NCBI GenBank assembly: GCA_030700105.1
Contig: JAUYKG010000016.1
Span: 2,863 to 66,862, forward strand
Origin: Candidatus Veblenbacteria bacterium
GTDB lineage: Bacteria > Patescibacteriota > Patescibacteriia > Veblenbacterales > UBA10138
Reading direction: 5' to 3'
Length of the DNA: 64,000 nucleotides
In this document: in pieces, positions 1-21,781 of the stretch
Position numbering within the stretch: position 1 is the stretch's first letter
How the letters are laid out: each line of letters opens with the position of its first letter
Notes under the pieces: generated by a model
The model's database searches: none
Seen by the model: only the letters and a program-made list of their open reading frames with translations
Told to the model about the DNA's origin: nothing
Made by a program: the position numbers and the translations under genes

Positions 1-3000
1 CAGCCGAGACAAGTTCAGTGGTGCCAGAAGAAGCATCAGCCGATAGTCCGGCCGGAGCAGACCTGCCAGCAGTTCAAGAATCGGAGCTGCCGCTGTTCCA
101 CCTGCGCTTAGCGCTTGGTGGCACCGAATGGCAGCCCTTAGTGGATGTGCCGGTGAGCGTGGGTGCCGAATTACCCGGTGAAGTAGTTTTGCCTTTGTCG
201 GTGCTGGATAATTTGGAGGCTGTGCAGATTGCGCTGGTGGCCCCCAGGCGCGAAGAGGCGTCCATGTATGTGTATTTGGACGCACTGGCTATCGAGGTGG
301 ACTACAAAACAGATTTGTTTACTCCTTTACGGCAACTGGTCCAGCAAAACGATGCCGTGGCCACGGAGTCGTTGGAAATGCCGGCTAATCTGGTGTTTAA
401 TGTGGCAACCACTGATTTTGCCGCTGACGAGGATGTGGTTTTTGATTTGGATTATACGGTGGAACTTATGGGCTTGGGGTACGTGAGGGAGCGTAGTGCT
501 TCAGCTGAAAGCGATAACCTTGTCCCGGATTTTACGATTATTGAGGAAGAGACCACGCCAGCAACGGAGAAAGAGCAGTCTGCCGATATCGTGCCTGAAC
601 CAGGCGAGCAAACATCAAGCGAGACATCTACGAGCGAGGAGTCTACTATTCCCGAGCCCAGTGAGGCATCATCCAGCCCGGAATCTTCAGCCCCGACAGA
701 AACGCCAATCCAAATAGAGCCGCCGGTGCCAGAGGTAGTGCCTGCTCAGACGTCTGAAACTCCGCCCGCCACCATTGAACCACCAGTCCAAGAAGAGGTG
801 CCAATTTCAGTAGGCTCTAAGCCGTGGCGGTCGTTGGTCTTAATCGCTCCAGCGGCGGCGGCCGACACTAAGATTGATATCGTTTCCGCCCAGGTTACAT
901 ACCAGGGCGCGCAGCAGCCGGATCTGGTGCCGGTAATGGAAGAAGTGGGAGCGAGCCAGCGTCTAAAGCTTCCGCGCCCCAGTAACTCGTTCCGTCCCGG
1001 CGCGTACCACCTGGTCGTGGAGCTGACGGATGGGCAAACAACAGTGCAGGTGAGCCAGGATTTTACCTGGGGAGTTTTAGCTATTAACACGAATAAGTCG
1101 GTGTACCAGCCGGGTGAGACCGCGTATTTACAAATGGCGGCGTTGGATGATGCCGGACATACTTTGTGCGAGGCTAATTTACAGATCGCCATTACCTCGC
1201 CCGCAGGGGAACAAGTTACGCTACTAGTAAGCGACGGTAGCATTAGTTTAAGTCCTACCTGCGGCCCGGACAATGTAACAGATGAGCCGGATTACTTTGC
1301 TCGCTACCCGTTGGCTGAGGCGGGTACCTACCGCCTTACGCTTACCAACCTGGACACTGGGCACGGGATAACAGGCGAGGTGGAGGTATGGCAGAGCGTA
1401 CCCTATGTAGTGGAACGCGTAGGGGCTACGCGTATAAACCCTTTTAAGAGCAAGTACCGCATGACGCTTCTAGTAACCGCGCTAGACGGATTTAACGGAG
1501 AACTGCGTGAGGTGGTGCCGGAGGGTTTTGAGGTGGAAGCAGAGACTGGCGGCGAGGTGCGGGCCGGCGAGCAGGGCAGCGTGGTGGCGTGGCGTTTGGA
1601 GCTTGAGCCGGGTGAGAATGCTCAGGTGGCGTATGTATACCAAGCACCCGAGGAGTCTCCACAATTTTACCTTTTGGGCCCGGCTGAGCTGGGCGAACCA
1701 TCATTCCCCCTGGGGCAGTTCTTTGGAGTGTTTGGTGATGTGGTGTTTAATGAAACGCGGCAGTGGCAACTGGCCTCTGATGCCGCTTGGTACTCCGCCA
1801 GTTGGTCCTACCGGGTCAAAGTAACTGTGCAAAATGCCGAGGTGGATGCTGACCTGACGAATTTTCCTGTTTATGTGAACTTGGCGAACTTGCCTGCAGG
1901 ATTTCATACCAACGTCAACCAGACTGATGCCCGGGACATCAGGGTGACAAAATCCGACGGTACTACCGAGCTGGCCCGTGAAGTGGTGTTTTATACCGCC
2001 GCATCTGATACAGGCGAGCTTCATTTCCTGGCTAATTCTTTAGCTAATGCTTCTGATACAGATTTCTATATCTATTATGGAAATGCGGGAGCTTCAGATT
2101 ATGGAGTAACTGATACCTATGGCAGGAATGCCGTATGGGCGGGATATGTGGGAGTTTTTCATTTTAACGAATCATCTGGCGGAGCGGGAGCAATCATAGA
2201 TTCCAGTGGTACAGGGAATGATGCGACTGATACAAATAGTCCGACGTTCGCACAAGCGGGTCAATTAGGAAAATCTATTTATTTCAATGGTGGTACAACA
2301 TTTCCATATATCCGAATAGGAAGCACAAGTCTTTCTTTAACAGATTTCACCATATCTTCTTGGATGAAGTTGATGACTGGCACCACAGAGAATAACGAGA
2401 TGCTTGATTATATAGCTGGAACTGCACCTGACCGTATTCTTATCCGTCCAATAGCAGAATATTTAAAAGTCAACGGAACAACAAAACAAGGAGTCGTAAC
2501 CGCAGACAATAGAGATGCGTGGCATTATTTTGCTTTAACGAAAAACAATTCAACCCCCCTCGCAGAGTATTTCAGGGATGCAATATCAGTAACGACTTTT
2601 GCTTTTACTGCGGGAGCTTCAGATTATGCAGCAACATACGCTGGGGCAAGGTCGTACCACTCTATTTTTTATGAAGATGAGCTTCGTATTAGAACAACGG
2701 TATCGTCAGACGAATGGCTCGCCGCTGAATATTCAAACCAAAACACGCCCACAACATTTTATGCGGTGGGGGCGGAGGAGACCCCCCTCCGCGTCCAAGG
2801 CGTGGTCTATATGGCCAATGAGAGCACCTTGGGTACTTCAGGCAATAGCGGCCCTTGTGATGGCAGTACCGCGGTCATCTCCATACGCATCAATGGGGGT
2901 ACCGCAGCCACGGGCTCGTGTAACGCTACCACGGCAGCCTTTGACATTACCGCTGTTTCAGCCGCCGCTTCCGGCGACACCATCACCGTCTACCTCACCT

Positions 3001-6000
3001 CCACCATGAAAGCCAACACGGTCTATGTCTCGGACGGCAACGCTGATACGGGCATAGACCTGTACGAGAACACGCTCGTGGTGGGGCACGTGAACGCTGG
3101 CCCTGCTACCATTCTCGACCTCCTTGACTACGACAGTACGACCAATAACACTGATATGCTGTTTGACGCCGTGGACGCCACCCCCGACACCTTAACTGTG
3201 GAAGACGGGGTAGAGCTCCACGTACGCACCGCAGAAACCCTGACCCCTGGGGGCACCGTCACCACCTCGTCCTCCTCAAATGGTGCTGATACCAATAAAG
3301 ACGGGGATATCCACATAGATGGCACGGGTACCCTTAGTATGGGTACTAACACCCTCTCGGTCGGTGGGGACTTTAACAATGAAGGCACTTTTTCTAAATC
3401 AACCGGCCAAACCACCACCTTCACCGCTGCCGCCACTGGCCACACTATTACGGACGGGGGAGAGAACTTTGACTCCGTCGCCTTTAACGGTTCGGGCGGT
3501 CCCTGGTACTCCTCCTCCTGGCCCTATCGCGTTAAGGTAACCATTCAAAACACCGAGGTTGACGCTGATCTAACGAGCTTCCCGGTCTACGTCAACCTAG
3601 CCAATTTACCAGCTGGTTTCCACACCAACGTCAACCAAACAGACGCGCGGGACATCAGGGTCACCAAAGCCGACGGCACCACGGAACTGGCCCGAGAAGT
3701 CATGTTCTATACCGCCGCTTCGGACACGGGAGAACTACACTTTCTCGCCGACGCTCTTTCCAATGCCTCTGATACCGATTTCTATATCTACTATGGCAAT
3801 GCGGCTGCGTCTGACTATGCCGTTACGGATACCTATGGCAGAAATGCGGTGTGGGGAGATTACGAAGGTGTTTGGCATTTGAACGAAGCAAGTTCAACCA
3901 GAGTAGATTCCAGCGGGAACGGGAATGATATGACCGATAACAATACCGTTTTATCAGCCGCTGGAAAGCTGGCTGGAAACGGAGCAGATTTTGAAACTTC
4001 CGTCCCAGAATATCTTTCCCGAACCGATGCTAATTTGAGCGCAGGATTTCCTGGTAAAAACGGTACTACACCAGCGGCACTCACTGTTTCTTGGTGGTTC
4101 AAACTGGAATCTTTCGTTACGACAAATGTGATGAATATGATTGCCAAGAATGCCACTACGGAAAATCCATATTTTGGGTATGTATATCCTACAGCTGGGA
4201 ATGATTTTCGGGCACAATTAAGTACTACCATTGCCTCGGCTGCCGATTCTGTGACTTCGGCTGGTGTATGGTATAGAGGAGCTTTGGTATGGGATGGAGC
4301 AGATGCTCAAACTTATATAGACGGCGTGGCAAGCGGTTCATCTGTTTCGGTTTCGTCTGTTCCAACAAATACAGGAAGCCTTTGGTTTGGAACAAGAGGA
4401 AGCTTAGGCACAACCCGTTCTATGGATGGCGTCATTGATGAGATTCGTATCCAAGTCATTGACCGCTCTGCCGACTGGGAAGCCGCCGAATACAGCAACC
4501 AGAGTGCCTCAGCCACGTTTTACAGCGTAGGGGAACAGGAAGGGGCCTGGTATAATGCCAGTTGGGATTATCGGGTAAAAGTAACCATTCAAAATGGTGA
4601 GGTGGACGCCGATCTCACCAGCTTCCCGGTTTACGTCAACCTAGCCAATTTACCAGCTGGTTTCCACACCAACGTCAACCAAACAGACGCGCGGGACATC
4701 GGGGTCACCAAAGCCGACGGCACCACGGAACTGGCCCGTGAAGTCGTGTTCTATACCGCCGCCTCTGATACGGGTGAGCTCCACTTCCTGGCTGACTCCC
4801 TGTCTAATACTGTTGATACTGATTTCTACATCTATTACGGCAACGCCGCTGCCTCTGACTATGCCGTTACCGATACCTATGGCAGAAATGCGGTGTGGGC
4901 AAATCATCTTGCAGTTTATCACTTGGCTGATACCCCAACGGGAAGCGCGGGAGACATAACCGACTCATCGGGGAATGGGAAGCATATGACCTCTGTCAAT
5001 ATGGACAGTGGGAATGTGGTGGCTGGGGCTTGGGGCACTGCTTTGGCCTTTAACGGTACAGACGAGTATGCGCTTATTGCAGAGGCACTTAACGCCACAC
5101 TTCCCGCATCGGTCACTGCAATTGTTAAGCCAACGGATGTTGGGGCAGCAACGGAACGATACTTTTTCTCAACTGCGAAGTCAACCGATGACCTTAACGA
5201 ACAAGTTGCAGGTATAAGGAATACCGATACATATATAACACTCACAAGAGGAGGAGCCCCCAGTGCAGTTGCGGAATCAACGATAGATATGACAGACGAC
5301 GCATATGCTCACGTGGCAAGCGTTTGGACTTCAGCAACGAGCAGAGCGGCATATCTTGATGGTGCAAATAAGGGGACAAACACCACATCAAAAACCGCTG
5401 CTGGGCTTGATAGGAGTGCGATTGGCGTTCGTGCGCGGTCTTCACTTGGAGCATATTGGGAGGGAGAGATTGATGAAATTCGTCTTTACGACGGAACATT
5501 GTCTGACCAATGGATAGCTGCCGAGGCCAGCAACCAGAACACGCCTACTACTTTCTACAGTGTGGGGTCAGTCGATGGTTCTAGCGGTGGCTGGTCCTTT
5601 GCTGACAGCACCACTATAGACGTGGACCTTACCCTGACCGCCGGTACCCTCTCCGGCACCCAAGACCTCACCGTGAACGGAGGAGACGTTACTGGCGACG
5701 GGGACATTAACCTTACTGGTGGTACCTTCCTCTTAGATGGAGCCTCTACCACTGGTTTTGGTGGCGCTACCGCCTGGGACTTTAACAACCTTACCCTGGG
5801 GGATGGTACGGGTACTACGACCACGACCGCAATAGGAGCGGGCGGTGTGACGGTGGCTGCTACGCTCACTATTGCTGCTAACCAAACGCTTGATATGAAC
5901 ACGAACGATCCGCCTCTGGATGTGAATGGTGCTGTTTCCATTAGTGGTACTCTCACTGCTTCGCAAACCGCCGTTTTCTCCGTGGCAGGGGACTTTACCA

Positions 6001-6854
6001 ACAACGGCACCTTCAATAACTCCTCGGGCACCGTTACCTTTGACGGTGCTGGCACCAGTACATTCAACGGTTCCAGCGCTCCGGCCATTACTTTCCACCA
6101 CTTCACCTCCACGACGGCTGGCAAGGTCCTTTCCTTTACCGAGGCCAAAACATTCCGTATTAACGGTGTTCTTACCATCCGCGGCTCCAGCGGCAACCAA
6201 ATTACCATTCGTTCCACTTCAGCCTCCAACCAGTGGCTCATTAACCACCAAGGTACGGAGAGCGTTCAGTACGCAGCCATTTATGATTCAGGGTGCGATG
6301 GCTCAAGTACCTACATTTCTCTGGACAACACCTCCAGTGACGGCGACGGTAACAACGGTACCTGCTGGCTGTTCCCCAGTTTGTCCTTCACCCTCAGCTC
6401 CACTTCAGCCAGCTTAGATTTGAACAGTGCTAATACCTTTACCACCACTGCCTCCACCACGCTCACGGTTACGGCCCGCTCGGCCTTTGGCTACCAGGGT
6501 TACGCTAAACAAACGGATAACCTGAGGCATACCGCCGACGCAGGTATCACCATAGCCGATTGGACCGGCACCAATGCTTCTCCCACGGTATTTAACGAGA
6601 CGTGCATAGCCAACGGTGCTAAGTGCGGGTGGGGGTACAACACGAACGATGCTGGCCTTACCCAGTTCGTGGATTCAACGTACTATGCCGGTTTTGTGCA
6701 GAGCACTACGGGCCCGGGCGATATCGTAGCCACGGCTTCGGGCCCAGTATCGTCCGACGCGACTATTATCACCTATCGTGCCAGCGTGGCTATGACGCAG
6801 GCCGCCGGGCCGTACCAAACAACGGTGGTTTATATAGTTACACCGCAATTCTAG
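1..6854 (+). CDS. Giant secreted/surface protein, 5'-truncated (>2278 aa here). It has three DUF2341-like + LamG-like modules, beta-helix-like G/T-rich repeats, and a conserved C-terminal domain shared with the 8477..9751 product.
   Basis: The ORF at 18..6854 has a reading frame that stays open to the window edge, so the true start is probably upstream. A ~120-aa module appears three times: 'SWxYRVKVT(I/V)QNxEVDADLTxFPVYVNLANLPAGFHTNVNQTDARDI(R/G)VTKxDGTTELAREVxFYTAASDTGELHFL...DTDFYIYYGNA'. Each copy is followed by a LamG/ConA-like segment ending 'DEIRI/ELRI...W(L/I)AAEYSNQ'. The C-terminus 'YRASVAMTQAAGPYQTTVVYIVTPQF' matches the C-terminus of the 424-aa neighbour. Confidence 0.8.
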   Translation, partial: AETSSVVPEEASADSPAGADLPAVQESELPLFHLRLALGGTEWQPLVDVPVSVGAELPGEVVLPLSVLDNLEAVQIALVAPRREEASMYVYLDALAIEVDYKTDLFTPLRQLVQQNDAVATESLEMPANLVFNVATTDFAADEDVVFDLDYTVELMGLGYVRERSASAESDNLVPDFTIIEEETTPATEKEQSADIVPEPGEQTSSETSTSEESTIPEPSEASSSPESSAPTETPIQIEPPVPEVVPAQTSETPPATIEPPVQEEVPISVGSKPWRSLVLIAPAAAADTKIDIVSAQVTYQGAQQPDLVPVMEEVGASQRLKLPRPSNSFRPGAYHLVVELTDGQTTVQVSQDFTWGVLAINTNKSVYQPGETAYLQMAALDDAGHTLCEANLQIAITSPAGEQVTLLVSDGSISLSPTCGPDNVTDEPDYFARYPLAEAGTYRLTLTNLDTGHGITGEVEVWQSVPYVVERVGATRINPFKSKYRMTLLVTALDGFNGELREVVPEGFEVEAETGGEVRAGEQGSVVAWRLELEPGENAQVAYVYQAPEESPQFYLLGPAELGEPSFPLGQFFGVFGDVVFNETRQWQLASDAAWYSASWSYRVKVTVQNAEVDADLTNFPVYVNLANLPAGFHTNVNQTDARDIRVTKSDGTTELAREVVFYTAASDTGELHFLANSLANASDTDFYIYYGNAGASDYGVTDTYGRNAVWAGYVGVFHFNESSGGAGAIIDSSGTGNDATDTNSPTFAQAGQLGKSIYFNGGTTFPYIRIGSTSLSLTDFTISSWMKLMTGTTENNEMLDYIAGTAPDRILIRPIAEYLKVNGTTKQGVVTADNRDAWHYFALTKNNSTPLAEYFRDAISVTTFAFTAGASDYAATYAGARSYHSIFYEDELRIRTTVSSDEWLAAEYSNQNTPTTFYAVGAEETPLRVQGVVYMANESTLGTSGNSGPCDGSTAVISIRINGGTAATGSCNATTAAFDITAVSAAASGDTITVYLTSTMKANTVYVSDGNADTGIDLYENTLVVGHVNAGPATILDLLDYDSTTNNTDMLFDAVDATPDTLTVEDGVELHVRTAETLTPGGTVTTSSSSNGADTNKDGDIHIDGTGTLSMGTNTLSVGGDFNNEGTFSKSTGQTTTFTAAATGHTITDGGENFDSVAFNGSGGPWYSSSWPYRVKVTIQNTEVDADLTSFPVYVNLANLPAGFHTNVNQTDARDIRVTKADGTTELAREVMFYTAASDTGELHFLADALSNASDTDFYIYYGNAAASDYAVTDTYGRNAVWGDYEGVWHLNEASSTRVDSSGNGNDMTDNNTVLSAAGKLAGNGADFETSVPEYLSRTDANLSAGFPGKNGTTPAALTVSWWFKLESFVTTNVMNMIAKNATTENPYFGYVYPTAGNDFRAQLSTTIASAADSVTSAGVWYRGALVWDGADAQTYIDGVASGSSVSVSSVPTNTGSLWFGTRGSLGTTRSMDGVIDEIRIQVIDRSADWEAAEYSNQSASATFYSVGEQEGAWYNASWDYRVKVTIQNGEVDADLTSFPVYVNLANLPAGFHTNVNQTDARDIGVTKADGTTELAREVVFYTAASDTGELHFLADSLSNTVDTDFYIYYGNAAASDYAVTDTYGRNAVWANHLAVYHLADTPTGSAGDITDSSGNGKHMTSVNMDSGNVVAGAWGTALAFNGTDEYALIAEALNATLPASVTAIVKPTDVGAATERYFFSTAKSTDDLNEQVAGIRNTDTYITLTRGGAPSAVAESTIDMTDDAYAHVASVWTSATSRAAYLDGANKGTNTTSKTAAGLDRSAIGVRARSSLGAYWEGEIDEIRLYDGTLSDQWIAAEASNQNTPTTFYSVGSVDGSSGGWSFADSTTIDVDLTLTAGTLSGTQDLTVNGGDVTGDGDINLTGGTFLLDGASTTGFGGATAWDFNNLTLGDGTGTTTTTAIGAGGVTVAATLTIAANQTLDMNTNDPPLDVNGAVSISGTLTASQTAVFSVAGDFTNNGTFNNSSGTVTFDGAGTSTFNGSSAPAITFHHFTSTTAGKVLSFTEAKTFRINGVLTIRGSSGNQITIRSTSASNQWLINHQGTESVQYAAIYDSGCDGSSTYISLDNTSSDGDGNNGTCWLFPSLSFTLSSTSASLDLNSANTFTTTASTTLTVTARSAFGYQGYAKQTDNLRHTADAGITIADWTGTNASPTVFNETCIANGAKCGWGYNTNDAGLTQFVDSTYYAGFVQSTTGPGDIVATASGPVSSDATIITYRASVAMTQAAGPYQTTVVYIVTPQF
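1790..2150 (+). repeat. Intragenic module repeat copy 1 (DUF2341-like), the most diverged copy.
   Basis: A DNA/protein repeat of the module also found at 3500..3880 and 4550..4925. Confidence 0.7.
3500..3880 (+). repeat. Intragenic module repeat copy 2.
   Basis: Positions 3591..3694 match 4635..4738 over 104 nt with one mismatch. Confidence 0.8.
4550..4925 (+). repeat. Intragenic module repeat copy 3.
   Basis: Near-identical to copy 2 over long stretches. Confidence 0.8.
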
Positions 6855-6860
6855 GAAAAG

Positions 6861-6910
6861 CAGTATAAAAACAGTATACAGTATTAAGTATTCAGTATTT
6901 AGTATTTGGT
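6861..6910 (+). repeat. Tandem short repeats of (C)AGTAT(T/A) immediately upstream of the four-helix-bundle gene.
   Basis: cAGTATaaaaacAGTATacAGTATtaAGTATtcAGTATttAGTATttgGTATg: seven units. Confidence 0.6.
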
Positions 6911-7285
6911 ATGGAGAATCCTAAAATTCATTCGTTCAAGGATTTAGTTGTGTGGCAAAAGGCGATTGAACTCGCAGTTATTGTGTACCAACTAACCCAG
7001 AAGTTCCCTAATCAGGAAACATACGGGTTGGTTTCCCAGCTCCGTCGTGCCGCGGTATCGGTTTCTTCCAATATCGCCGAAGGGTTTACCCGTAGCTCTC
7101 GTCGAGAGAAGGTGCAGTTCTATGCCATAGCGCGCGGATCGCTGGCAGAAGTAGAAAGTCAGCTTGAGTTAGCGAGGCGAGTTGGCTATGTGCCTAATAA
7201 CGATTATCATGCGTGCGGTGCTCAACTTGAGGACGTTCGTAGGTTATTGGGTAAGTTCGTTTCAGCAGCAACCGATAAGCCATGA
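6911..7285 (+). CDS. Four-helix-bundle protein (23S rRNA intervening-sequence protein family, TIGR02436-like).
   Basis: 124 aa with the family hallmarks 'FKDLVVWQKAIELAV...YQLTQKFP..E.YGLVSQLRRAAVSVSSNIAEG' and 'FYAIARGSLAEVESQL'. The ATGA overlap with the next gene suggests co-translation. Confidence 0.75.
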   Translation: MENPKIHSFKDLVVWQKAIELAVIVYQLTQKFPNQETYGLVSQLRRAAVSVSSNIAEGFTRSSRREKVQFYAIARGSLAEVESQLELARRVGYVPNNDYHACGAQLEDVRRLLGKFVSAATDKP

Positions 7286-8460
7286 AAAGAAATCTTATAC
7301 TTCTGGCCGTCGTGCTGAGTACTGTATACGGTATACTGTATACTTCTTCGGCAGCTGCTGCCGAAGTTGGTTTCAGTGTGTCCGAGAGTTTGTTTGACAT
7401 CTCCTTGCCGCCCGGGGCCGAACAAGAGGTGCAGTTGGTGGTGTTCAACCAGTCCAACGCCGAGCCATTGCCCGTGCACCTGGAGCTTACCTTGTGGGGC
7501 TTGAACGATGATACCGACAGCATAGAGTTTACGACCGCCGATGAAGCGCTTAATGCCGCGCGCTGGTTTGAGCTTGCGGGTACGCCGGATTTTATTCTAC
7601 AGCCTACGGGAGAGCATGAGGTCGTGTGGAACATCAGCGTACCACCCGAAGCTCCAGCTGGTTCGTACTTGGTAATGGCGCGATTCATACCGGCACTGCC
7701 GGAGCATTACTTTAGCGAAGCGGGTCCGCGTTCCGTACCCGAACTCGGCGTGTTGTTCTTTATTAAGGTGGTGCCTTTGGGTTTTGAGATGGCTGATTCG
7801 TACCGGGCGAGTATAACTTCGTTCCAGCCACAAGGCAGAGGCTGGAAGTTCATACCCGGGGCTGAGGCCGCCGCCAAGGCGGGGCAAGCCGGCGTGTACG
7901 GCAGCCTAGCCAGTGCTTTTCAAGCTCTGGTGAAGAATGAAGGTTTGTACTTTTTCAAAGCGCAAGGGACCGTTGAGGTCAGAGGCTGGTGGGGGAGGCA
8001 GGTGGCGCACTTCGTCTTACCTGAGAAATACCTATTACCGGGTAACACCCGGCAGCTGACAGCACAAAGTGAAACCGAATCCTGGTTCAAGCGTCGGTTG
8101 CATTTCGGGCTGTATCATGCTCAGCTGGCCTTGGCGGTGCCGAACCACGACTTGCCGGTAGTCTCCGAGGTATCATTTTGGGTGATTCCCTGGGACTTTA
8201 TCCTGGCCCTACTAGCTGTAGCTGGTGCGATAATAGCCAGCCGGAGGCGGGTGTGGGCTGCGGCTAGGGCTTTGGCTATCCCTCAGGCTATCTCCCCTAT
8301 TGACCATTCTGACAGTTATGGTATAATTAACCCGTCTTTACCAAGCCCTCCCAAGGCGCGTTCTTGGCCAGGCACTGCCTCGGTCAAGAAAAAGCCCAAG
8401 AGGACGCCACGACGCTTGAGCGAAAAGGCACGCTCTCGCCGCCGTTTAATCCAAGATTAA
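7282..8460 (+). CDS. Exported protein with a cleavable signal peptide, a beta-sandwich ectodomain, and a C-terminal TM anchor plus basic tail (DUF916/DUF3324, CscA-like architecture). It is a paralog of the 9832..10788 product.
   Basis: Signal peptide 'MKRNLILLAVVLSTVYGILYTSSAAAAE'. C-terminal 'FWVIPWDFILALLAVAGAIIASRRR' followed by a K/R/S/P-rich tail. Segments align block by block with the 318-aa paralog (PGAEQEVQLVVFN ~ PGETVENVVRVYN; WFELAGTPDFILQP ~ WVSVEPTDFVLP). Confidence 0.6.
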   Translation: MKRNLILLAVVLSTVYGILYTSSAAAAEVGFSVSESLFDISLPPGAEQEVQLVVFNQSNAEPLPVHLELTLWGLNDDTDSIEFTTADEALNAARWFELAGTPDFILQPTGEHEVVWNISVPPEAPAGSYLVMARFIPALPEHYFSEAGPRSVPELGVLFFIKVVPLGFEMADSYRASITSFQPQGRGWKFIPGAEAAAKAGQAGVYGSLASAFQALVKNEGLYFFKAQGTVEVRGWWGRQVAHFVLPEKYLLPGNTRQLTAQSETESWFKRRLHFGLYHAQLALAVPNHDLPVVSEVSFWVIPWDFILALLAVAGAIIASRRRVWAAARALAIPQAISPIDHSDSYGIINPSLPSPPKARSWPGTASVKKKPKRTPRRLSEKARSRRRLIQD

Positions 8461-8476
8461 TTAAACAAACACGCCT

Positions 8477-9751
8477 ATGCAGTACCTCTATCGTTTCTTA
8501 CGTAAGCCCAACGCCAAGCCGAGCGTGATGGGTCTTGTTTTTGTAACCGTATTGGCGCTTTCCGGGCTGTATGCTTTGGGGGTGCCTCAGCGCACCAATG
8601 CTGCCGCTTTAACAAGCGTAAAGGCTACCCTGAGCGATTCCCGTCCTGGCAACGATGCCAACTGGACCATCCAGTTTGTTATGCCAACCCTCATCAATGA
8701 GAACGACACGATCGTGTTGGGCATTGACACCATAGCCACCGCGGACGAGTTTAACCTCGCCGATATTGCCGAAGCCGCCGGTGCTTCTGACTTTGATTTA
8801 GCGGAGGATACCGACGGCAGCCCGGGTAGCTGCAGTGGCACGCTAACGGACGAAACGTTGGATGCGTCAGCTGGTGCCGCCGCCTGGGGCGTGGGCGTGA
8901 ACACCACTACGGATACCATTACCTTTACCGCGCCTTCTGGCGTCGCCACCTATATTGCCGCCAGCGCTTGCGTGGTCATTGAAATTGGCACCAACGCGAC
9001 CAATGAATTCACGGGCGTGAACCAGATAAACAACCCCTCCAAAACAGCTGCCGCCGGCACGGCCGATGTTAACGACGTGGCTATTAGTTTTACCGGTAAC
9101 GCGGCGGCTGATAGCGGCACGGCCCTGGTTGCTACCGTGGAAGGCGTAACCGTGTCTGTTACGATCGACGAATCACTCTCCGTGGTACTGGCCGAAGTAG
9201 CGGCCGCAAGTTGTCCTAGTACTCTTCCTGGAACTGACAAGTCGGATGAGGCTGGCCACACAGACACAGCCATTGATTTCGGTACATTAACGAGCGGTGA
9301 CGCGTTCTACAACAGCTGTCACCAGCTTACCATTGGCACGAACGCTACCGACGGCTATAGCACGACCGTGTACAAGACCCAGTTGTTAACCGCTGGCTCA
9401 GATACTATTGCCGAGGGCGATTGCAACGCCGGTAGCTGCACCACCACGGGTTCTGGCCTGTGGACCACCACCACCGAGAACGGCTTCGGGTACTGTATGG
9501 ACGACGTAACCGGTGATGCGGCCGTCACGGCTGATGGCTCCGGCTGGACCACTGCTGAACAGTGCGACGACGCTACGCCGGAGTTCAAGCTCTTTGGCAC
9601 AGCCACCGGTAACTCACAAGCCATTATGTCCAGTGCCGCACCGGTATCAGGCGATAACAGCATTATCGCGGCCGTGCTTAACTACTCAGCGAGCCAAGCG
9701 GCCGGTACATACACCACCACGCTGGTATTCGTTACTACGCCCACCTTCTAA
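8477..9751 (+). CDS. Secreted protein (424 aa) whose C-terminal ~170-aa domain is homologous to the giant protein's C-terminus. It is a possible cell-wall-binding, WxL-like module.
   Basis: N-terminal signal/TM segment 'VMGLVFVTVLALSGLYALG'. It is G/T/A/S/D-rich and carries Cys pairs (CPST...C, CNAGSC). The C-terminus 'LNYSASQAAGTYTTTLVFVTTPTF' aligns with the giant protein's 'ITYRASVAMTQAAGPYQTTVVYIVTPQF'. Confidence 0.55.
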   Translation: MQYLYRFLRKPNAKPSVMGLVFVTVLALSGLYALGVPQRTNAAALTSVKATLSDSRPGNDANWTIQFVMPTLINENDTIVLGIDTIATADEFNLADIAEAAGASDFDLAEDTDGSPGSCSGTLTDETLDASAGAAAWGVGVNTTTDTITFTAPSGVATYIAASACVVIEIGTNATNEFTGVNQINNPSKTAAAGTADVNDVAISFTGNAAADSGTALVATVEGVTVSVTIDESLSVVLAEVAAASCPSTLPGTDKSDEAGHTDTAIDFGTLTSGDAFYNSCHQLTIGTNATDGYSTTVYKTQLLTAGSDTIAEGDCNAGSCTTTGSGLWTTTTENGFGYCMDDVTGDAAVTADGSGWTTAEQCDDATPEFKLFGTATGNSQAIMSSAAPVSGDNSIIAAVLNYSASQAAGTYTTTLVFVTTPTF

Positions 9752-9831
9752 ACCCACGAACATCTGGCAGAGAGTTTTCCAGATTCCGCTTTGTACTTGA
9801 TGACGATACGGACAGCTGATAAATTTAATCC

Positions 9832-10788
9832 ATGAATTCACCTTTTGCGCGGTTGACGGCGGTACGCGCTTCCGGCTTCTCTGTGGTAGGGGCCGCGGTT
9901 CTCCTGGGGCTTTTAGGCTCTGGGGCGCCGCGGTTTGTTTTTGCGCAAGCGGGTAGCGCCATTTCCTTGGCGCCGCTCACCTTCGAACTAACAGCCAATC
10001 CCGGGGAAACCGTGGAGAATGTGGTGCGCGTATACAACAATGGTGACCAGCCGGTGACCGTAGTGATGCAGGTGCAAGACTTTGCCGCGGCTGGTGAGCG
10101 CGGTGAAGTGGTATTGCAGGAAGCTGACAATCATACGTTCTCTCTGGCTAGTTGGGTGAGCGTGGAGCCCACCGATTTCGTGCTACCGGCTAAGGAATTC
10201 AAACCCGTAACCTTTAAAGTTGCCCTGCCGCCAAACGCCGAGCCGGGCGGACACTATGGTACTGTTCTGGCCTCCGTTACTGGCGTGGCTTCTGGCACGG
10301 GCGCGGCTTTGGCGCAAAAGATAGGCTCACTCATTCTACTGCAAGTGCCTGGTGTGATCAGTGAACAGCTCGCTTTGGCTTCTTTGGAAGCGCCCGGGTT
10401 TTCCGAATATGGCCCGGTGACCTTGACGGCGCGCTTTAAGAATGACGGCTCGGTGCACCTGAAGCCGAGAGGTTTTGTGTTGGTAAAGGGTATGACCGGA
10501 CGCGAGGTGGCACGCTTAGACATACCGCAGCAGAATGTATTGCCGACTTCGGTGCGTAGGATAGATGTTGATTTCCTCGGTAAGTGGCATTGGGGTCGCT
10601 ATACCGCCACCCTAACGGCTATCTATGGCTCGACCAATGAACCGCTGTCTGCTAGTGTGGCATTTTGGATATTTCCCTGGAAGGTGAGTTTGGCAGTACT
10701 CATAGCCGCCTTTATAGTACTGTATGCTCTTTACCGCGGCAGGCGCAGGTTGGCAGCGGCTGGGCGTGTACTGGTTAAGGGGAGCTAA
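9832..10788 (+). CDS. Exported protein with a signal peptide, a beta-sandwich ectodomain and a C-terminal TM anchor (DUF916/DUF3324, CscA-like). It is a paralog of the 7282..8460 product.
   Basis: Signal peptide '...SVVGAAVLLGLLGSGAPRFVFAQA'. It contains 'FELTANPGETVENVVRVYNNGDQPVTVVMQV'. The C-terminus is 'FWIFPWKVSLAVLIAAFIVLYALYRGRRR'. Confidence 0.6.
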   Translation: MNSPFARLTAVRASGFSVVGAAVLLGLLGSGAPRFVFAQAGSAISLAPLTFELTANPGETVENVVRVYNNGDQPVTVVMQVQDFAAAGERGEVVLQEADNHTFSLASWVSVEPTDFVLPAKEFKPVTFKVALPPNAEPGGHYGTVLASVTGVASGTGAALAQKIGSLILLQVPGVISEQLALASLEAPGFSEYGPVTLTARFKNDGSVHLKPRGFVLVKGMTGREVARLDIPQQNVLPTSVRRIDVDFLGKWHWGRYTATLTAIYGSTNEPLSASVAFWIFPWKVSLAVLIAAFIVLYALYRGRRRLAAAGRVLVKGS

Positions 10789-10794
10789 GGCCGA

Positions 10795-10875
10795 GTATGT
10801 AGGTATGTAGTATGTAAGTATGTAGGGGGTACGCTCTTTCCTTACATACCTATATACCTATTACCTATTACCTAT
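10795..10875 (+). repeat. Tandem GTATGTAG-type repeats forming a long imperfect palindrome upstream of the dockerin-protein gene.
   Basis: GTATGTAGGTATGTAGTATGTAAGTATGTAG ... CCTTACATACCTATATACCTATTACCTATTACCT, which is the reverse-complementary arm. Confidence 0.6.
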
Positions 10876-11848
10876 GCTTTGTTCCGCCGGAGAACATTTC
10901 GGTGTGAAGGCCCTCGGTACAGCCGCAGCGGTTATTTTATTGTTGGGGGCTGGTGAGCTCTGGGCGCAAACCTCTAACTGCACCCCCGCAACGTTGCCTT
11001 GTCCGTCCCTTGATAGTACGGTCAGCATTACTATCGGTGGTTCCCCCGGCGGCGGGGGTGGCAGTAGCGGCAACCTACCCCGTGAAGTGACCGATGGTGA
11101 TGTCGTCATCAAGGGCTACAGCGCGCCCGGCAGCATTGTTACCATTCTGCGGGACGGTACGGTGGCGGCCTCGTTTATCACACCGATCGAGGGCAGGTTT
11201 GAGCGTACGCTAACCATCATACCGGCCGGTATTCACACCTTCGCCCTGTTCGCCATTGATCAGGAGGCTCATGCTACGCCCACTGTGGCCCTGTCGGTTT
11301 CCGTGGCCGGCGGCACGGTGACGACCATAGCTGATCTGGTGATGCCGCCCACACTTTGGGCCAACCCAGCGGCCACGACGCAAGGCTCGCCCGTGGCCTT
11401 GAACGGTTTTGCCGCTCCGGGGGCTGAGGTATTTATTGCCCTGCCTTCGGGTTTGCCTGTGTTGAGGGCGACCGCCGCCGGCAGCGGCCGTTTTTCCGCC
11501 TCCTTTGACACATCTGTTTTGTCTCTTGGTGTATATGTGGTACGCGGGTATGCTCGTTTGAGCGGCGGGCTGTTGAGCGAGTTTAGTTCACCTGTGCGCG
11601 TAGTGGTCCTTCCTGCCGGGACACCGCCCGAGGTAATACCCACAGAACCTTCCCTACCGCCAGGCGAAGAAGAGGAGGTGCGTACCTGTGCGCGCGGCGA
11701 CCTTAGTAACGACAGTCACGTGAACCTCACCGATTTCAGTATTCTGATATACTGGTGGGGGAGCGTGAACCAGTGTGCCGACCAGAATGGCGACGGTAGC
11801 GTGAACTTAACCGACCTCTCCATACTCTTGTACTGGTGGACAGGGTAG
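10874..11848 (+). CDS. Secreted Ig-like protein ending in two dockerin-like Ca-binding repeats. The start may instead be the GTG at 10904.
   Basis: Signal peptide 'KALGTAAAVILLLGAGELWAQ' and a Gly-rich linker 'GGSPGGGGGSSGN'. The C-terminus has tandem ~24-aa repeats 'GDLSNDSHVNLTDFSILIYWW' and 'ADQNGDGSVNLTDLSILLYWW', matching the dockerin pattern D-x-N/D-x-D-G-x-VN-x-xD-x-x-x-L. Confidence 0.6.
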   Translation: MLCSAGEHFGVKALGTAAAVILLLGAGELWAQTSNCTPATLPCPSLDSTVSITIGGSPGGGGGSSGNLPREVTDGDVVIKGYSAPGSIVTILRDGTVAASFITPIEGRFERTLTIIPAGIHTFALFAIDQEAHATPTVALSVSVAGGTVTTIADLVMPPTLWANPAATTQGSPVALNGFAAPGAEVFIALPSGLPVLRATAAGSGRFSASFDTSVLSLGVYVVRGYARLSGGLLSEFSSPVRVVVLPAGTPPEVIPTEPSLPPGEEEEVRTCARGDLSNDSHVNLTDFSILIYWWGSVNQCADQNGDGSVNLTDLSILLYWWTG

Positions 11849-11854
11849 GGGAGT

Positions 11855-11889
11855 GAGTATTAAGAATTCAGTATACAGTATTCAGTATG
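11855..11889 (+). repeat. Tandem AGTAT repeats upstream of the first cohesin-like gene.
   Basis: gAGTATtaagaattcAGTATacAGTATtcAGTATg. Confidence 0.55.
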
Positions 11890-13125
11890 ATTAATGCCGT
11901 ACTAAAACATATTCAGAGCGCGTCGCAGCCTTCCGTAGCGGTAAAACATTTTGGCGTAGACGGTAAGGGTTTTCCGCTGTTGATCATACTATATACGTTA
12001 TACTGGATACTGAATACTCCAATTGCTTCTGCCGCCACCATTTCCGTTCTGCCCCAAGGGACCGAAGTAGGCGTGGGGCAGACTTCTCTAGTTGAATTAT
12101 GGCTTGATACTGAAGGGGAGACGGTGAACGCGCTCTCCTTTGTCCTTGCCTTTGATCCGCAGTTCGTGAGTGTGGAAAGTGTTTCCACTGGCGGCAGTGT
12201 CTTTAGCCTTTTCCCTGTACCACCCTTGGTCTTGAACGAGCGCGGTGTGGTGGAGCTGTCTGCCGGTGCGCCCGGCGGGTTCGCGGGACAAGGGCTAGTG
12301 GCCAACATTTTGCTGCGGGGTCTACGGGTTGGCACAGCCGCGCTCAGTATTACTTCCAGCCAGGCGCTTAAGCATAGTCCGACGGCAGAGCCCATCTCCC
12401 TGCGTGTTCTTGGCTCTAGCCTGCAGGTGGCTACGCCGGAGACAGGTGAAATCGTTATAACCTCTAAGGATCATGCCGAGGAAAGTGTGTGGTATAACGT
12501 ACCATTCATCCGTATGTCATGGCCAGTTCGTCCGGGGGCTTCGTATAGCTACGTGCTGTCCCGTTCGCCCAACGAAGAGCCTGATGAAGTACCAGATGAA
12601 CCAACGGGGGAGATTAAGCTGAGTATAAGTGAGGACGGCGTGTTCTACTTTCACCTGCGCGAGTGCCGTGCCGGCACGTGCGGACCCACCGTTACGCGGC
12701 GGGCTATGAAAGATACCACACCGCCCGAACGCCTGGAGCTCGCGGTTGGTGCAGCGTCAGGTGTATTGGAGGGTAAAGTGTTCTTGAGCTTTACCGCCAG
12801 CGACGCGACTTCAGGGGTAGCGCACTACGAAGTCTGGGAAGAGGCAGTAGGTGAAACTTGGGAGAGGGTTATGAGTCCTTACGTGCTACAAGACCAAGCG
12901 CACCAGGGGGTGGTGCGTGTGCGGGCTTATGATACAGCAGGGAACTATCGCGAGGAAATACTTTCTCCTTTGGCTCCAGAGCCTTGGTACAGGTCAGAGG
13001 TGGTGTTTTGGGGTATACTGGTAGTAGGTTTAGCTGCTCTGGGAGTAACAATTTTTGTTAAACGCCGTGGGCAAGCCGGTCCAGCGCCCCAGGCTAACCA
13101 GTCTTCCACGCCTCCTTTGCCATGA
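11887..13125 (+). CDS. Membrane-anchored protein with an N-terminal cohesin-like domain, an FN3/Ig-like domain and a C-terminal TM.
   Basis: N-terminal hydrophobic segment 'FPLLIILYTLYWILNTPIASA'. The cohesin-like region reads 'ISVLPQGTEVGVGQTSLVELWLDTEGETVNALSFVLAFDPQFVSVESVS...VVELSAGAPGGFAGQGLVANILLRGLRVGTAALSI'. C-terminal TM 'VVFWGILVVGLAALGVTIFV'. The region downstream of the cohesin-like block is homologous to the following gene. Confidence 0.55.
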   Translation: MINAVLKHIQSASQPSVAVKHFGVDGKGFPLLIILYTLYWILNTPIASAATISVLPQGTEVGVGQTSLVELWLDTEGETVNALSFVLAFDPQFVSVESVSTGGSVFSLFPVPPLVLNERGVVELSAGAPGGFAGQGLVANILLRGLRVGTAALSITSSQALKHSPTAEPISLRVLGSSLQVATPETGEIVITSKDHAEESVWYNVPFIRMSWPVRPGASYSYVLSRSPNEEPDEVPDEPTGEIKLSISEDGVFYFHLRECRAGTCGPTVTRRAMKDTTPPERLELAVGAASGVLEGKVFLSFTASDATSGVAHYEVWEEAVGETWERVMSPYVLQDQAHQGVVRVRAYDTAGNYREEILSPLAPEPWYRSEVVFWGILVVGLAALGVTIFVKRRGQAGPAPQANQSSTPPLP

Positions 13126-15218: not shown

Positions 15219-15395
15219 GGTAGTTATCCGTGACAAGATGTATGATTGTGCGTAGATTGGTTAAGGGTGTAAACCGCGAGACCCCGCACCGTGCCTCGGC
15301 TCTGGTGCGTGGGTGGAGCAAGCCGAGAGGCAAACCGAGTAAGTGTCGAGTGCGGGTTATTTTTGGCTAAGGTAAAACAAATTTTTTTTAGGCCA

Positions 15396-15424
15396 TTGAC
15401 GCGTAATCATCTGCGGGGTATAAT
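15396..15424 (+). promoter_or_regulatory. Consensus sigma70-type promoter of the ATP synthase operon.
   Basis: -35 TTGACG at 15396..15401, an exact 17-nt spacer, and -10 TATAAT at 15419..15424. It lies ~20 nt upstream of the atpZ-like start. Confidence 0.6.
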
Positions 15425-15443
15425 TTTTACCCGAAGTTTTACT

Positions 15444-15737
15444 ATGTCCAACCCTGAACAATCTAACGAGGAACAAAACCAGAGCACCGTGTTCAAGGCT
15501 TTGGGGCTGGCTTGGGAGCTCGGCTACACCATCGCCGTACCGTTGGTAGTACTGGCGCTGGCTGGTCGTTTGGTTGATCGCTGGCTCGGTACTTCCCCTT
15601 GGTTTTTGTTGGTGGGTGTATTACTGTCGATCGTGATTTCCACCTGGACCGTTTATCGTAAGACCAAGCTTATTATATCTGCGCCTGCGGCAGGGTCTGG
15701 TGCGAATACGGCTGAGCAAAAGAAGACCGTCTTATGA
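15444..15737 (+). CDS. atpZ: AtpZ/AtpI-like small membrane protein preceding atpB.
   Basis: 98 aa counted from the internal ATG 'MSNPEQS'; the longer ORF start at 15291 would overlap the promoter. Two TM segments 'YTIAVPLVVLALAGRLV' and 'WFLLVGVLLSIVISTW'. It sits immediately upstream of atpB. Confidence 0.5.
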   Translation: MSNPEQSNEEQNQSTVFKALGLAWELGYTIAVPLVVLALAGRLVDRWLGTSPWFLLVGVLLSIVISTWTVYRKTKLIISAPAAGSGANTAEQKKTVL

Positions 15738-16507
15738 ACATCTCTCTCGCCGCCGAGCCCATCTTCTCTATTGGGGCATTCACGGTAACTAACTCACTCT
15801 TGGTGGGGGTTCTGGTTATGCTGTTGTTGGTGGTGGTCGCTCTGGCGACTGGGCTCAGGCGTTTGCGCGAAGTGCCGCAGGGCTTGCAGAACGTTACTGA
15901 GGCGTTGGTGGAGGGGGCCTTAACGTTCATAGAGAGCGTTACTGGGAACCGCGAACAGGCGAAGCGATTTTTGCCGCTCACAGCCACTATTTTCTTCTTT
16001 GTTCTAATATCCAATTGGATAGGATTACTGCCGGGTGTTGGCACCATCGGCCTTAACGAGGTGCACGAAGGGCGTGTGGTCTTGGTGCCGTTCTTACGTT
16101 CAGCCTCGGCCGACCTCAACACCACCCTGGCCATTGCGCTCATTTCGGTGCTGGGTACGCAGCTCTTTGGTATTGTGGCGCTAGGGTTTTTTAAGCACGC
16201 CGGTAAGTATCTGAATTTTGCCAGCCTGTTTAAACACTTTAATTTTCAGAGCGTCATCCTGTTCTTCGTGGGGTTGCTGGAGCTTGTCTCCGAGGTGGCC
16301 AAAGTGGTCTCGTTCTCCTTTCGTCTCTTTGGCAATGTGTTCGCCGGTGAGGTACTCTTAATCGTGATATCCTCACTGGTGCCCTACCTGGCCCCCTTGC
16401 CGTTCTTGTTCCTGGAGATCTTCGTGGGTCTGGTACAGGCGCTGGTGTTCTCGCTCCTTACTCTGGTGTTCCTTACTATTGCCACGGCCGAGCACGCCGA
16501 ACACTAG
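15734..16507 (+). CDS. atpB: F0F1 ATP synthase subunit a.
   Basis: 257-aa polytopic protein. The C-terminal part carries 'RLFGNVFAGEVLL' and 'LPFLFLEIFVGLVQALVFSLLTLVFL' (the a-subunit arginine region). Confidence 0.9.
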   Translation: MNISLAAEPIFSIGAFTVTNSLLVGVLVMLLLVVVALATGLRRLREVPQGLQNVTEALVEGALTFIESVTGNREQAKRFLPLTATIFFFVLISNWIGLLPGVGTIGLNEVHEGRVVLVPFLRSASADLNTTLAIALISVLGTQLFGIVALGFFKHAGKYLNFASLFKHFNFQSVILFFVGLLELVSEVAKVVSFSFRLFGNVFAGEVLLIVISSLVPYLAPLPFLFLEIFVGLVQALVFSLLTLVFLTIATAEHAEH

Positions 16508-16640
16508 TACTTAGTGCTCCTTGGTGAGGCCATGAGCCTCGCCCAGGGACCCTAATTACTAACGTACTTTTTGGACCGACGGTAAAAAAATAAGAAACCG
16601 TAGCGGATTTGGAAAGTACCAAGAAAGGTCGCACGAAATT

Positions 16641-16901: not shown

Positions 16902-16963
16902 GGTTCTCAGTTCCCGGCTCCTCGCAAAGGGGCCGCACAGTGCGAATCCTTAATCCCTAACAC

Positions 16964-17883: not shown

Positions 17884-17908
17884 TACTTTTCATTCACGTA
17901 CATCCCGT

Positions 17909-19405: not shown

Positions 19406-19416
19406 GAAAAACGCGT

Positions 19417-21773
<2,357 letters not shown>

Positions 21774-21781
21774 CGCTTGCC

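Follow-up and report, generated by a model that had tools for sequence, protein, structure and literature searches.

A cluster of eight genes at the left end of the window

We analyzed 64,000 nucleotides (nt) from a Candidatus Veblenbacteria genome (GenBank assembly GCA_030700105.1, contig JAUYKG010000016.1, positions 2,863 to 66,862), which we refer to as the window. The host belongs to the Parcubacteria group of the Patescibacteria, which are also called the candidate phyla radiation (CPR). Two of the encoded proteins are 100% identical to proteins of a Candidatus Veblenbacteria metagenome-assembled genome: the 318-aa protein along its entire length and the 424-aa protein along 72% of its length, where the record is partial. 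At positions 3-15218, the window contains eight co-directional genes on the + strand, with intergenic spacings of -4 to 85 nt. We think that these genes probably form one operon for a Pam-type pilus, which would be put together through donor-strand exchange, aided by chaperones but without an usher. The genes, and the domains that matter most for this argument, are as follows (all on the + strand; aa, amino acids):

3..6854, +: gene for a giant secreted protein, whose open reading frame (ORF) runs off the left end; probable pilus tip adhesin
6330..6851, +: residues about 2110-2283 of the giant protein, its C-terminal domain; a homologue of the pilin's acceptor domain
6911..7285, +: gene for a 23S_rRNA_IVP four-helix-bundle protein, 124 aa (Pfam PF05635, E = 6e-39)
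7282..8460, +: membrane-anchored chaperone-like protein 2, 392 aa; paralogous to chaperone-like protein 1
8477..9751, +: putative major pilin, 424 aa; matches NCBIfam CPR_Pam_pilin_C
9137-9196, +: linker or donor strand of the pilin (residues about 221-240)
9263-9748, +: C-terminal domain of the pilin (residues 263-424)
9832..10788, +: membrane-anchored chaperone-like protein 1, 318 aa; matches Pfam WxLIP_PGBD
10874..11848, +: dockerin protein, 324 aa; matches Pfam Big_6 and Dockerin_1
11887..13125, +: membrane-anchored cohesin-type protein, 412 aa; weak cohesin matches and a C-terminal transmembrane (TM) helix
13122..15218, +: paralogue of the cohesin-type protein, 698 aa, recognized by BLASTP against the 412-aa protein

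An earlier, sequence-only reading of positions 1-10788 had picked out four of these genes (those for the giant, 392-aa, 424-aa, and 318-aa proteins), and all four are indeed on the + strand where it placed them. The dockerin gene lies beyond the coordinates of that reading: as judged by synteny, the conserved module extends past 10788, to 15218.

The shared C-terminal domain is homologous to that of Pam pilins

The giant protein and the 424-aa protein were thought to share a homologous C-terminal domain of about 170 aa, and this proved correct. When the last 230 aa of the giant protein were compared to the 424-aa protein, BLASTP gave E = 9e-7, with 31% identity across 152 columns and many gaps. 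We also took 49 homologues of the pilin, with the window sequence excluded, and built a hidden Markov model (HMM) from their last 200 aa. This model matches residues 2132-2283 of the giant protein (E = 6e-13, 44 bits), and among the 544 ORFs of the window, it has no match beyond the giant and 424-aa proteins. The motifs that had been quoted in support of the similarity (the Cys pairs and the terminal "...AAG(P/T)Y(Q/T)TT..TP(Q/T)F") are present in both proteins. The domain seems to be confined to the ends of proteins: jackhmmer recognized it in 98 ORFs, and in every one of these, no more than 9 residues separate its end from the stop codon; in 77 of them, it ends directly at the stop codon.

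Two suggestions had been made for what this domain is: a divergent WxL domain or a new binding module. The first can be ruled out. PF13731 (WxL) has no match at E ≤ 1 in the giant protein, the 424-aa protein, or 50 homologues; the W-x-L motif is absent from all proteins of the gene set; and a profile of the shared domain had no match to WxL proteins among the sequences in PDB. Nor is the module new, as it corresponds to the C-terminal domain of the Pam pilins of CPR bacteria (NCBIfam NF058581, CPR_Pam_pilin_C). NF058581 matches the 424-aa protein with 29.4 bits (E = 7e-7), or with 32 bits (E = 1.2e-7) if the domain is searched alone. The alignment spans residues 263-424 of the protein and positions 3-148 of the 148 positions in the profile. 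The C-terminus of the giant protein matches as well (E = 4e-4, 20 bits), as do 42 of the 50 homologues (best E = 9e-24). In addition, pilin-sized proteins from syntenic loci in other CPR lineages match the model end to end, with 24-38 bits. These results support homology between the shared domain and the C-terminal domain of Pam pilins, even though the curated threshold for membership is missed. Because of this match, we view the locus as a divergent Pam-type donor-strand pilus operon.

The NF058581 model derives from Troman et al. (bioRxiv 10.64898/2026.03.03.709456), who used electron cryomicroscopy (cryo-EM) to study the filaments of the Saccharibacterium Ca. Mycosynbacter amalyticus. The pilins that were identified in these filaments are PamA and PamB; in each, the linker strand of a neighboring subunit is accepted by the C-terminal domain. 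The linker, the "TNAxxGY" motif, and the C-terminal strand are reported to be conserved in PamA and PamB, and the pilins have paired cysteines. Besides the pilins, the operon encodes two FimC/PapD-like chaperones with a C-terminal TM helix (PamC and PamD), PamE, PamT (a tip pilin with a single domain), and PamR (a TM anchor that is RbmA-like), and it adjoins genes for ATP synthase. The preprint also notes an unnamed "tail fibre-like protein" in the conserved neighborhood, and this protein may correspond to one of the genes in our locus. It does not mention WxL, DUF916, dockerin, cohesin, or adhesin. Our assignment of the locus to the Pam system rests on the NCBIfam profile; PamA to PamD were likened to the proteins in the window from their description in the preprint.

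The 424-aa protein as the probable major pilin

The 424-aa protein comprises a signal peptide, an N-terminal beta sandwich (about residues 44-220), the linker or donor strand, and the C-terminal domain. By hydropathy, its only hydrophobic segment is at the N-terminus, and it contains 8 cysteines. The AlphaFold2 model of this protein has a mean predicted local distance difference test (pLDDT) score of 90.7; beta strands at 46-220 are followed by a strand at 234-240 and then by a second beta domain at 278-422. Thus, the layout of a Pam pilin (two beta domains, a strand that joins them, and a conserved linker) is present in the predicted structure. The most conserved stretches in the alignment of the family include the linker (221-235), the segment "LTIGTNATDGY", which contains a "TNAxxGY" motif, and the C-terminal strand.

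The sequence "IGTNAT" occurs in both domains of the pilin (8981-8998 and 9332-9349, or residues 169-174 and 286-291), each time in one of the most conserved segments, and the HMM for the C-terminal domain also matches the N-terminal domain weakly. The two domains may descend from an ancient duplication.

Relatives of the pilin are numerous: an exhaustive profile search of 1.84 billion representative sequences found 4,936 of them, including 1,052 at E ≤ 1e-30, and multi-domain giants are among the 4,936. Nearly all of the source-named representatives of the family (about 4,900 at 50% identity) are annotated as hypothetical. One relative, P0263 (3077 aa), contains ten tandem stretches that resemble the N-terminal domain of the pilin, and several proteins of 900-1400 aa contain 2-4 of them, so giant surface proteins also employ this domain as a repeated unit. 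A homologue search that started from the pilin of locus L074 (which is labeled "Saccharimonadales", evidently unreliably) returned CPR2-type relatives only and no named Pam protein.

The giant protein

The giant protein has more than 2283 residues, as its ORF runs off the left end of the window. It contains three modules of DUF2341 plus LamG (Laminin_G_3, with E = 1e-24 in three stretches; DUF2341, E = 2e-12), an MG2-like region, Thr/Gly-rich stretches that resemble beta helices, and the C-terminal domain of the Pam pilin type. The modules that include DUF2341 are encoded by three direct repeats of 300 nt (1786-2085, 3502-3801, and 4546-4845), which are 76-84% identical to each other. The unit of DUF2341 and LamG was therefore duplicated within the gene. 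Homologues of the N-terminal region of the giant protein are found among the large upstream proteins of at least 21 related loci. At least 20 related loci encode proteins of 1000 to 2694 or more aa that terminate in the shared domain, and the genes for these are located directly upstream of the first chaperone gene.

Because the giant protein has the same acceptor domain at its extreme C-terminus as the pilin does, it would be built into the fiber. From this arrangement, we propose that it is probably the tip adhesin of the pilus and presents its lectin-like domains to a host or another substrate. The segment "PSLSFTLSS", which lies ahead of its C-terminal domain, aligns with the linker strand of the pilin, so the giant protein may also donate a strand and sit within the fiber.

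Two membrane-anchored chaperone-like proteins

The sequence-only reading described the 392-aa and 318-aa proteins as paralogues, each with a signal peptide, a beta-rich ectodomain, and a C-terminal TM anchor. BLASTP, hydropathy, and the AlphaFold2 model bear this out. The two proteins align across 313 columns (E = 1e-18, 25% identity), including the shared end of FW(V/I)(I/F)PW, TM helix, and RRR, and by hydropathy both carry a hydrophobic segment at the N-terminus and a single TM segment at the C-terminus. The 392-aa protein has a signal peptide, two beta domains, and FWVIPW followed by the TM helix and a long basic cytoplasmic tail. The 318-aa protein has a signal peptide, a DUF916-like domain, a second Ig-like domain, and FWIFPW followed by the TM helix and RRR; its AlphaFold2 model (pLDDT of 86) shows a pair of beta domains and, at 283-316, a terminal helix.

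These proteins had also been linked to the DUF916/DUF3324 architecture. For DUF916, this is right: the 318-aa protein matches PF06030 (DUF916, or WxLIP_PGBD) with 27.5 bits, just above the cutoff of 27.3 (E = 3.5e-6), and 37 of the 39 members of its family match at E < 0.01. The 392-aa protein matches WxLIP_PGBD weakly (14 bits). DUF3324 (PF11797), on the other hand, could not be recognized by sequence, as just one of the 39 family members matches it (E = 0.005).

When we compared the model of the 318-aa protein to PDB with Foldseek, the best matches were WxLIP from Enterococcus faecium (9i25_C, which is from locus A and bound to a long WxL protein, and 9i1y), with E = 1e-12, TM-scores of 0.48-0.58, and 16% identity. 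The next matches were chaperones of chaperone-usher systems (CfaA, CsuC, YadV, FimC, Caf1M, DraB, and CupB2; E = 1e-11 to 1e-8). If normalized to the target, TM-scores are 0.5-0.58 for WxLIP, CfaA, CsuC, FimC, and Caf1M. A profile of the 318-aa family did not find WxLIP among the PDB sequences, so the link to WxLIP rests on the Pfam model and on the fold. Given the evidence from fold, Pfam, and TM helices, we consider the 392-aa and 318-aa proteins to be membrane-anchored chaperones of the PapD/WxLIP type, which fits the description of PamC and PamD.

The juxtamembrane motif FW(V/I)(I/F)PW of the two chaperone-like proteins (8159-8190 and 10663-10690) recurs as "FVIPWVW" at the first internal TM segment of the 698-aa protein (14301-14330). 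It may be a shared membrane-proximal signal or an interaction motif.

Dockerin and cohesin-type proteins

Encoded downstream of the 318-aa chaperone-like protein, the 324-aa protein begins with a signal peptide and a short strand, "DSTVSITIGG" (nt 11012-11041), and continues with a Gly-rich linker, two Big_6 Ig domains (Pfam, E = 1e-6), and a C-terminal dockerin (nt about 11696-11827; Dockerin_1, E = 5e-6, above the cutoff). The double dockerin motif is found at the end of 72 of its 74 homologues. One member of the family, L057:10845-12023, ends in a TM helix instead, as has been described for PamR.

Most members of the dockerin family have a strand of the type "(G/D)(V/I)S(V/I)SATVE" right after the signal peptide, followed by a Pro/Gly-rich spacer. 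In the window, the corresponding segment is "DSTVSITIGG-SPGGGGGSSG", which resembles the start of the pilin's linker ("EGVTVSVTIDE"). An 18-column HMM of the linker did not match the N-terminal strand of the dockerin proteins. A 10-column position-specific scoring matrix reached at least 10 bits in 17 of 74 dockerin proteins versus 4 of 424 size-matched ORFs. In the protein from the window, its own strand was not the best-scoring site for this matrix, so the argument for that strand rests on the family alignment.

Three long forms of the dockerin protein (L023:10851-12308, L032:1343-2782, and L037:10943-12382) contain the N-terminal domain of the pilin, the linker, Big_6, and the dockerin; an HMM for the N-terminal domain of the pilin matches them with E = 1e-32 to 1e-38. 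These long forms look like pilins whose acceptor domain has been swapped for an anchoring module.

The 412-aa protein has a cohesin-like domain at the N-terminus, two more beta domains, and a C-terminal TM helix (372-390). The Pfam model for cohesin matches 6 of the 23 members of this family (best E = 5.5e-7). When a profile of the family was compared to the sequences in PDB, there were six matches up to E = 1, every one of them to a cohesin module but none significant by itself (E = 0.1-0.5). The 698-aa protein is a paralogue of the 412-aa protein (BLASTP, E = 9e-35), likewise with a cohesin-like N-terminal domain. By hydropathy, it has three TM segments, which are internal or C-terminal, and its cytoplasmic tail is coiled.

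Conservation across the CPR

The idea that these genes belong together predicts that they co-occur in related genomes, and they do. We scanned one genome per GTDB species with the alignment of the chaperone family (the pilin alignment had no stretch that was conserved enough for this purpose) and obtained 80 loci. Their titles include Uhrbacteria, Spechtbacterales, Colwellbacteria, Paceibacterota, Moraniibacteriota, CPR2, WWE3, Berkelbacteria, Beckwithbacteria, and others. Some titles come from automated submissions of metagenome-assembled genomes and are taxonomically unreliable; the few that are not from the CPR (such as Gammaproteobacteria, Pseudomonadales, Dehalococcoidia, Elusimicrobia, and Methylomirabilis) were taken to be mislabeled or contaminated bins.

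In 41 of the 63 loci that have enough sequence, a gene whose product carries the shared domain terminates just upstream of the 318-type gene. A second chaperone gene is present upstream in 38 of 59 loci, and in 26 of 33 loci with two chaperones, another protein with the C-terminal domain ends just before the upstream chaperone. Eighteen of those 26 upstream proteins are at least 900 aa long (up to more than 2694 aa), and many are cut by the end of the contig. On the downstream side, no more than 700 nt separate the 318-type gene from the start of a gene for a 324-aa protein homologue in 69 of 70 loci, and in 55 of 61 loci, homologues of the 412-aa and 698-aa proteins follow. Overall, homologues of the 412-aa protein are found in 58 loci and homologues of the 698-aa protein in 61.

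A proposed mechanism

Our preferred explanation, that positions 3-15218 encode a Pam-type pilus, builds on the homology of the C-terminal domains, the match to the Pam model, the fold and membrane anchors of the chaperone-like proteins, and the synteny. From these we infer polymerization, the position of the giant protein at the tip, and anchoring by dockerin and cohesin. For polymerization and for capping by the chaperones, we rely on the cryo-EM work on Pam pili and on the precedent of chaperone-usher systems.

All of the products would be exported by Sec. The 424-aa protein would be the major pilin: the groove of its C-terminal domain would take the linker strand of the next subunit, which would give a linear fiber. 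The 392-aa and 318-aa chaperones would cap the grooves of newly exported subunits and pass them to the growing base, where the linker of an incoming 424-aa subunit would displace the chaperone from the previous subunit. The fiber would therefore grow from the base. The giant protein, with an acceptor domain and with a huge N-terminal part in place of the pilin's N-terminal domain, would be incorporated first and end up at the tip, like FimH or PapG. More speculatively, the 324-aa protein, which lacks an acceptor domain but has a strand that resembles the linker, could cap the last pilin, and the dockerin of this terminator would bind the cohesin-type domains of the 412-aa and 698-aa membrane proteins, which would take the place of PamR.

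Comparison with known systems

The locus resembles the Pam operon in the paired cysteines of the pilin, the two two-domain TM chaperones, the absence of an usher, the signal peptides on all components, the CPR host, and the ATP synthase operon alongside. It differs in several ways. The host is from the Veblenbacteria (in the Parcubacteria group), whereas the preprint highlights Saccharimonadia and Microgenomatia. There is one pilin gene instead of PamA, PamB, and PamE. Instead of the single-domain PamT, there is a protein of more than 2283 aa with DUF2341, LamG, and an acceptor domain, and the model for PamT (NF058579) has no match at E ≤ 1 among the proteins of the window. Finally, a dockerin protein and two membrane-anchored cohesin-type proteins are found instead of the RbmA-like, TM-anchored PamR.

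In the Csc/WxL clusters of Lactobacillales, Enterococcus, and Listeria, a small WxL protein and a large WxL protein are encoded with WxLIP, which comprises DUF916, DUF3324, and a TM helix (Siezen 2006; PMC10599100). A strand of DUF916 is predicted to insert into WxL, which would be chaperone-like behavior (Hassan et al. 2023, PMC10599100). The sequence-only reading had proposed a gene set of this kind. The architecture is indeed alike: small and large secreted proteins with a common C-terminal module are interleaved with membrane-anchored paralogues that have two Ig-like domains, the 318-aa family matches DUF916, and the best fold match is WxLIP. But the shared domain is not WxL, DUF3324 is undetectable by sequence, and the host is from the CPR and is not a Firmicute. 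Without the WxL domain that defines them, the locus does not count as one of the Csc/WxL clusters. Also, the pilin has an additional N-terminal domain and a conserved linker strand, which implies polymerization, and polymerization has not been described for WxL proteins. Csc/WxL is thus related to the locus in architecture, and where the chaperones are concerned, it is probably related by evolution too.

With the chaperone-usher pili (Pap, Fim, CFA/I, Csu, and Caf1), the locus shares the fold of the two-domain, PapD-like chaperone (E = 1e-11 to 1e-8), a C-terminal domain of the subunits that ends in a conserved strand at the free C-terminus, the proposed donor-strand complementation and exchange, and a putative adhesin that consists of a large receptor part and a pilin domain (compare FimH and PapG). 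In contrast to those systems, the locus has no usher or outer membrane to work with, its chaperones are anchored in the membrane, its pilins have two domains, the donor strand is an internal linker instead of an N-terminal extension, and there is no detectable sequence similarity. Pfam found no usher domain (PF00577) in the proteins of the operon, which, along with the anchored chaperones, rules out a chaperone-usher system. CPR cells are monoderm-like. A sortase-dependent pilus of the Gram-positive type can be ruled out as well: as the sequence-only reading had observed, there is no LPXTG signal or sortase, with no LPx[TSA]G motif in the seven proteins searched and no sortase domain in the operon proteins scanned with Pfam.

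The downstream genes bring to mind the anchoring of cellulosomes (ScaB/ScaC and OlpA/OlpC), which also involves a C-terminal, type-I-like dockerin and cohesin-like N-terminal domains on adjacently encoded, cell-bound proteins. Unlike in cellulosomes, there are no enzymes here, the anchors are integral membrane proteins instead of SLH proteins, the base of a pilus would be the cargo, and the assignment of the cohesins rests on weak profile matches.

Alternative explanations

Several observations weigh against a Pam-type pilus. With NF058581, both the pilin (29-32 bits) and the giant protein (20 bits) score under NCBI's curated cutoff of 55 bits. Fold searches with the whole pilin found only generic Ig, pilin, and cohesin folds, and searches of PDB sequences with the pilin did not match PamA, PamB, PamC, or PamD from M. 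amalyticus. No filament has been seen in this lineage. The window contains no gene that is, as such, like PamT or PamR. Genes for ATP synthase (atpA or atpD) are within 10 kb of the module in just 6 of 82 related loci, so this adjacency, while true of the window, is not a general hallmark. Lastly, linkage of the 318-type gene to the genes for dockerin and cohesin (69 of 70 loci) is tighter than its linkage to any pilin that could be detected (41 of 63 loci). In ten loci (L048, L051, L061, L068, L071, L073, L077, L079, L081, and L082), the 318-type gene, a long dockerin protein, and the cohesin-type genes are present without an adjacent pilin; the genes upstream are for glycogen metabolism or glycolysis or have other housekeeping functions. 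Since this trio occurs without an adjacent pilin, the role of the 318-type protein may exceed that of a pure pilin chaperone. Alternatively, the pilins of these lineages may be encoded elsewhere in their genomes.

We considered whether the locus might instead encode a non-filamentous complex of the Csc/WxL type, in which each WxLIP-like protein holds one protein with the C-terminal domain by strand insertion, and nothing polymerizes. This would account for the best fold match of the 318-aa protein being a WxLIP that is bound to a long WxL protein (9i25_C, E = 1e-12), for DUF916 in 37 of the 39 family members, and for the pairing of each gene for a C-terminal-domain protein with one downstream WxLIP-like gene. 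The predicted insertion of DUF916 into WxL (Hassan et al. 2023, PMC10599100) would provide the mechanism, and polymerization at this locus is, after all, only our inference. However, the C-terminal domain matches the model for Pam pilins, whose filaments have been seen by cryo-EM, and neither the WxL domain of Pfam nor the W-x-L motif could be found. Also, the strongly conserved linker between the N-terminal and C-terminal domains would have no role in a one-to-one complex, and the dockerin-family proteins that have the pilin's N-terminal domain and linker, but lack the C-terminal domain, look like chain terminators. Overall, we consider this type of complex to be unlikely, but it is the most serious competitor to a Pam-type pilus.

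It is less likely still that the locus encodes a cellulosome-like carbohydrate scaffold, with LamG and Ig proteins assembled by cohesin and dockerin and with a shared domain that binds the wall or glycans and has nothing to do with pili. The dockerin and cohesin-type genes are the most tightly linked of all, the giant protein has lectin modules that resemble LamG or ConA, and some lineages have a dockerin gene, a cohesin gene, and one WxLIP-like gene with no adjacent pilin. But no glycoside hydrolase domain was found in the operon proteins that we scanned against Pfam and NCBIfam, just one protein has a dockerin (neither the giant protein nor the 424-aa protein does), and the C-terminal domain is homologous to a pilin domain. 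As for chance resemblance or an annotation artifact, the proteins are secreted and rich in Thr, Ser, Gly, and Ala, and the pairwise BLASTP alignment is gappy and reaches only E = 9e-7. These doubts are answered by the profile that excludes the window (E = 6e-13, with no other match in the window), by the 98 homologous domains that are all C-terminal and lie in conserved synteny, and by the 4936 representatives of the family, so we regard this explanation as refuted.

With these alternatives weighed, a Pam-type pilus is still the explanation that we favor, and the core identity of the locus is most likely already known as of 2026: it would be a divergent example of the Pam system and not a new system. 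The giant protein as a candidate tip adhesin, the dockerin-cohesin module, and the link to WxLIP are new leads with computational support. A broader scenario, which we offer only tentatively and which may well be wrong, is that Pam pili and Csc/WxL are two branches of one ancient, usher-less system for surface assembly in monoderm-type cells, based on strand insertion and membrane-anchored chaperones, and that in the large Parcubacteria-type branch to which this locus belongs, the pilus would have a giant tip with LamG and DUF2341 and, instead of a TM subunit, a dockerin terminator held in membrane-anchored cohesins.

Genomic context

Between the gene for the giant protein and the gene for the 392-aa protein lies the 124-aa 23S_rRNA_IVP gene, which the sequence-only reading had omitted. 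Its stop overlaps the start of the 392-aa gene by 4 nt. Homologues are found at varying positions in 11 related loci, and in two of these (L005 and L019) they are in frame with the neighboring genes, with no stop codon between. This is probably an intervening gene and not part of the pilus system.

A scan for promoters and terminators gave nothing decisive. A sigma-70-like promoter match (11 of 12 positions, with an extended -10 TG) is present at 8300-8327, within the 3' end of the 392-aa gene and 150 nt upstream of the start codon of the pilin. If functional, this match to the consensus could add to the transcription of the pilin gene.

Past the last gene of the module, the window continues with the ATP synthase genes:

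15291..22228, +: F-type ATP synthase operon, with ATPase_gene1 and with P-loop motifs like those of F1-alpha and F1-beta
15734-16507: putative ATP synthase subunit a, assigned by eye

This operon, including ATPase_gene1 (AtpI-like), begins 72 nt beyond the module and is on the same strand. The P-loops of F1-alpha and F1-beta were identified with regular expressions, and homologues of both ORFs were recovered in related loci. The rest of the window encodes housekeeping functions (an AddA/UvrD-type helicase-nuclease, PheRS, DnaE, FtsW/RodA, L25, and RF1), and the GC content is even throughout. Because of these neighbors and the even GC content, we view the region as ordinary chromosome and not an island, and an origin from a mobile element or phage can be ruled out. 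Across 1-64000, only two of the 2-kb windows lack a positive GC skew, the cumulative skew climbs steadily, and most genes are on the + strand, which fits a segment of the leading strand with no origin or terminus inside.

Implications

Little is known about how the ultrasmall CPR bacteria (Patescibacteria) locate their hosts and hold on to them. It was not until 2026 that the Pam pilus was identified, in a single cultivated Saccharibacterium, and the locus that we describe suggests that a related pilus system is widespread in Parcubacteria-type lineages. Three points go beyond the preprint on Pam pili: a candidate for a giant, lectin-like tip that would bind the host, a conserved module of dockerin and cohesin that could serve as the anchor, and a link between the chaperones and WxLIP. 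If the second point is true, it would be the first cohesin-dockerin pair that is used to anchor a pilus. The third, a connection in both sequence and structure between Pam chaperones and WxLIP, would tie together two separate literatures.

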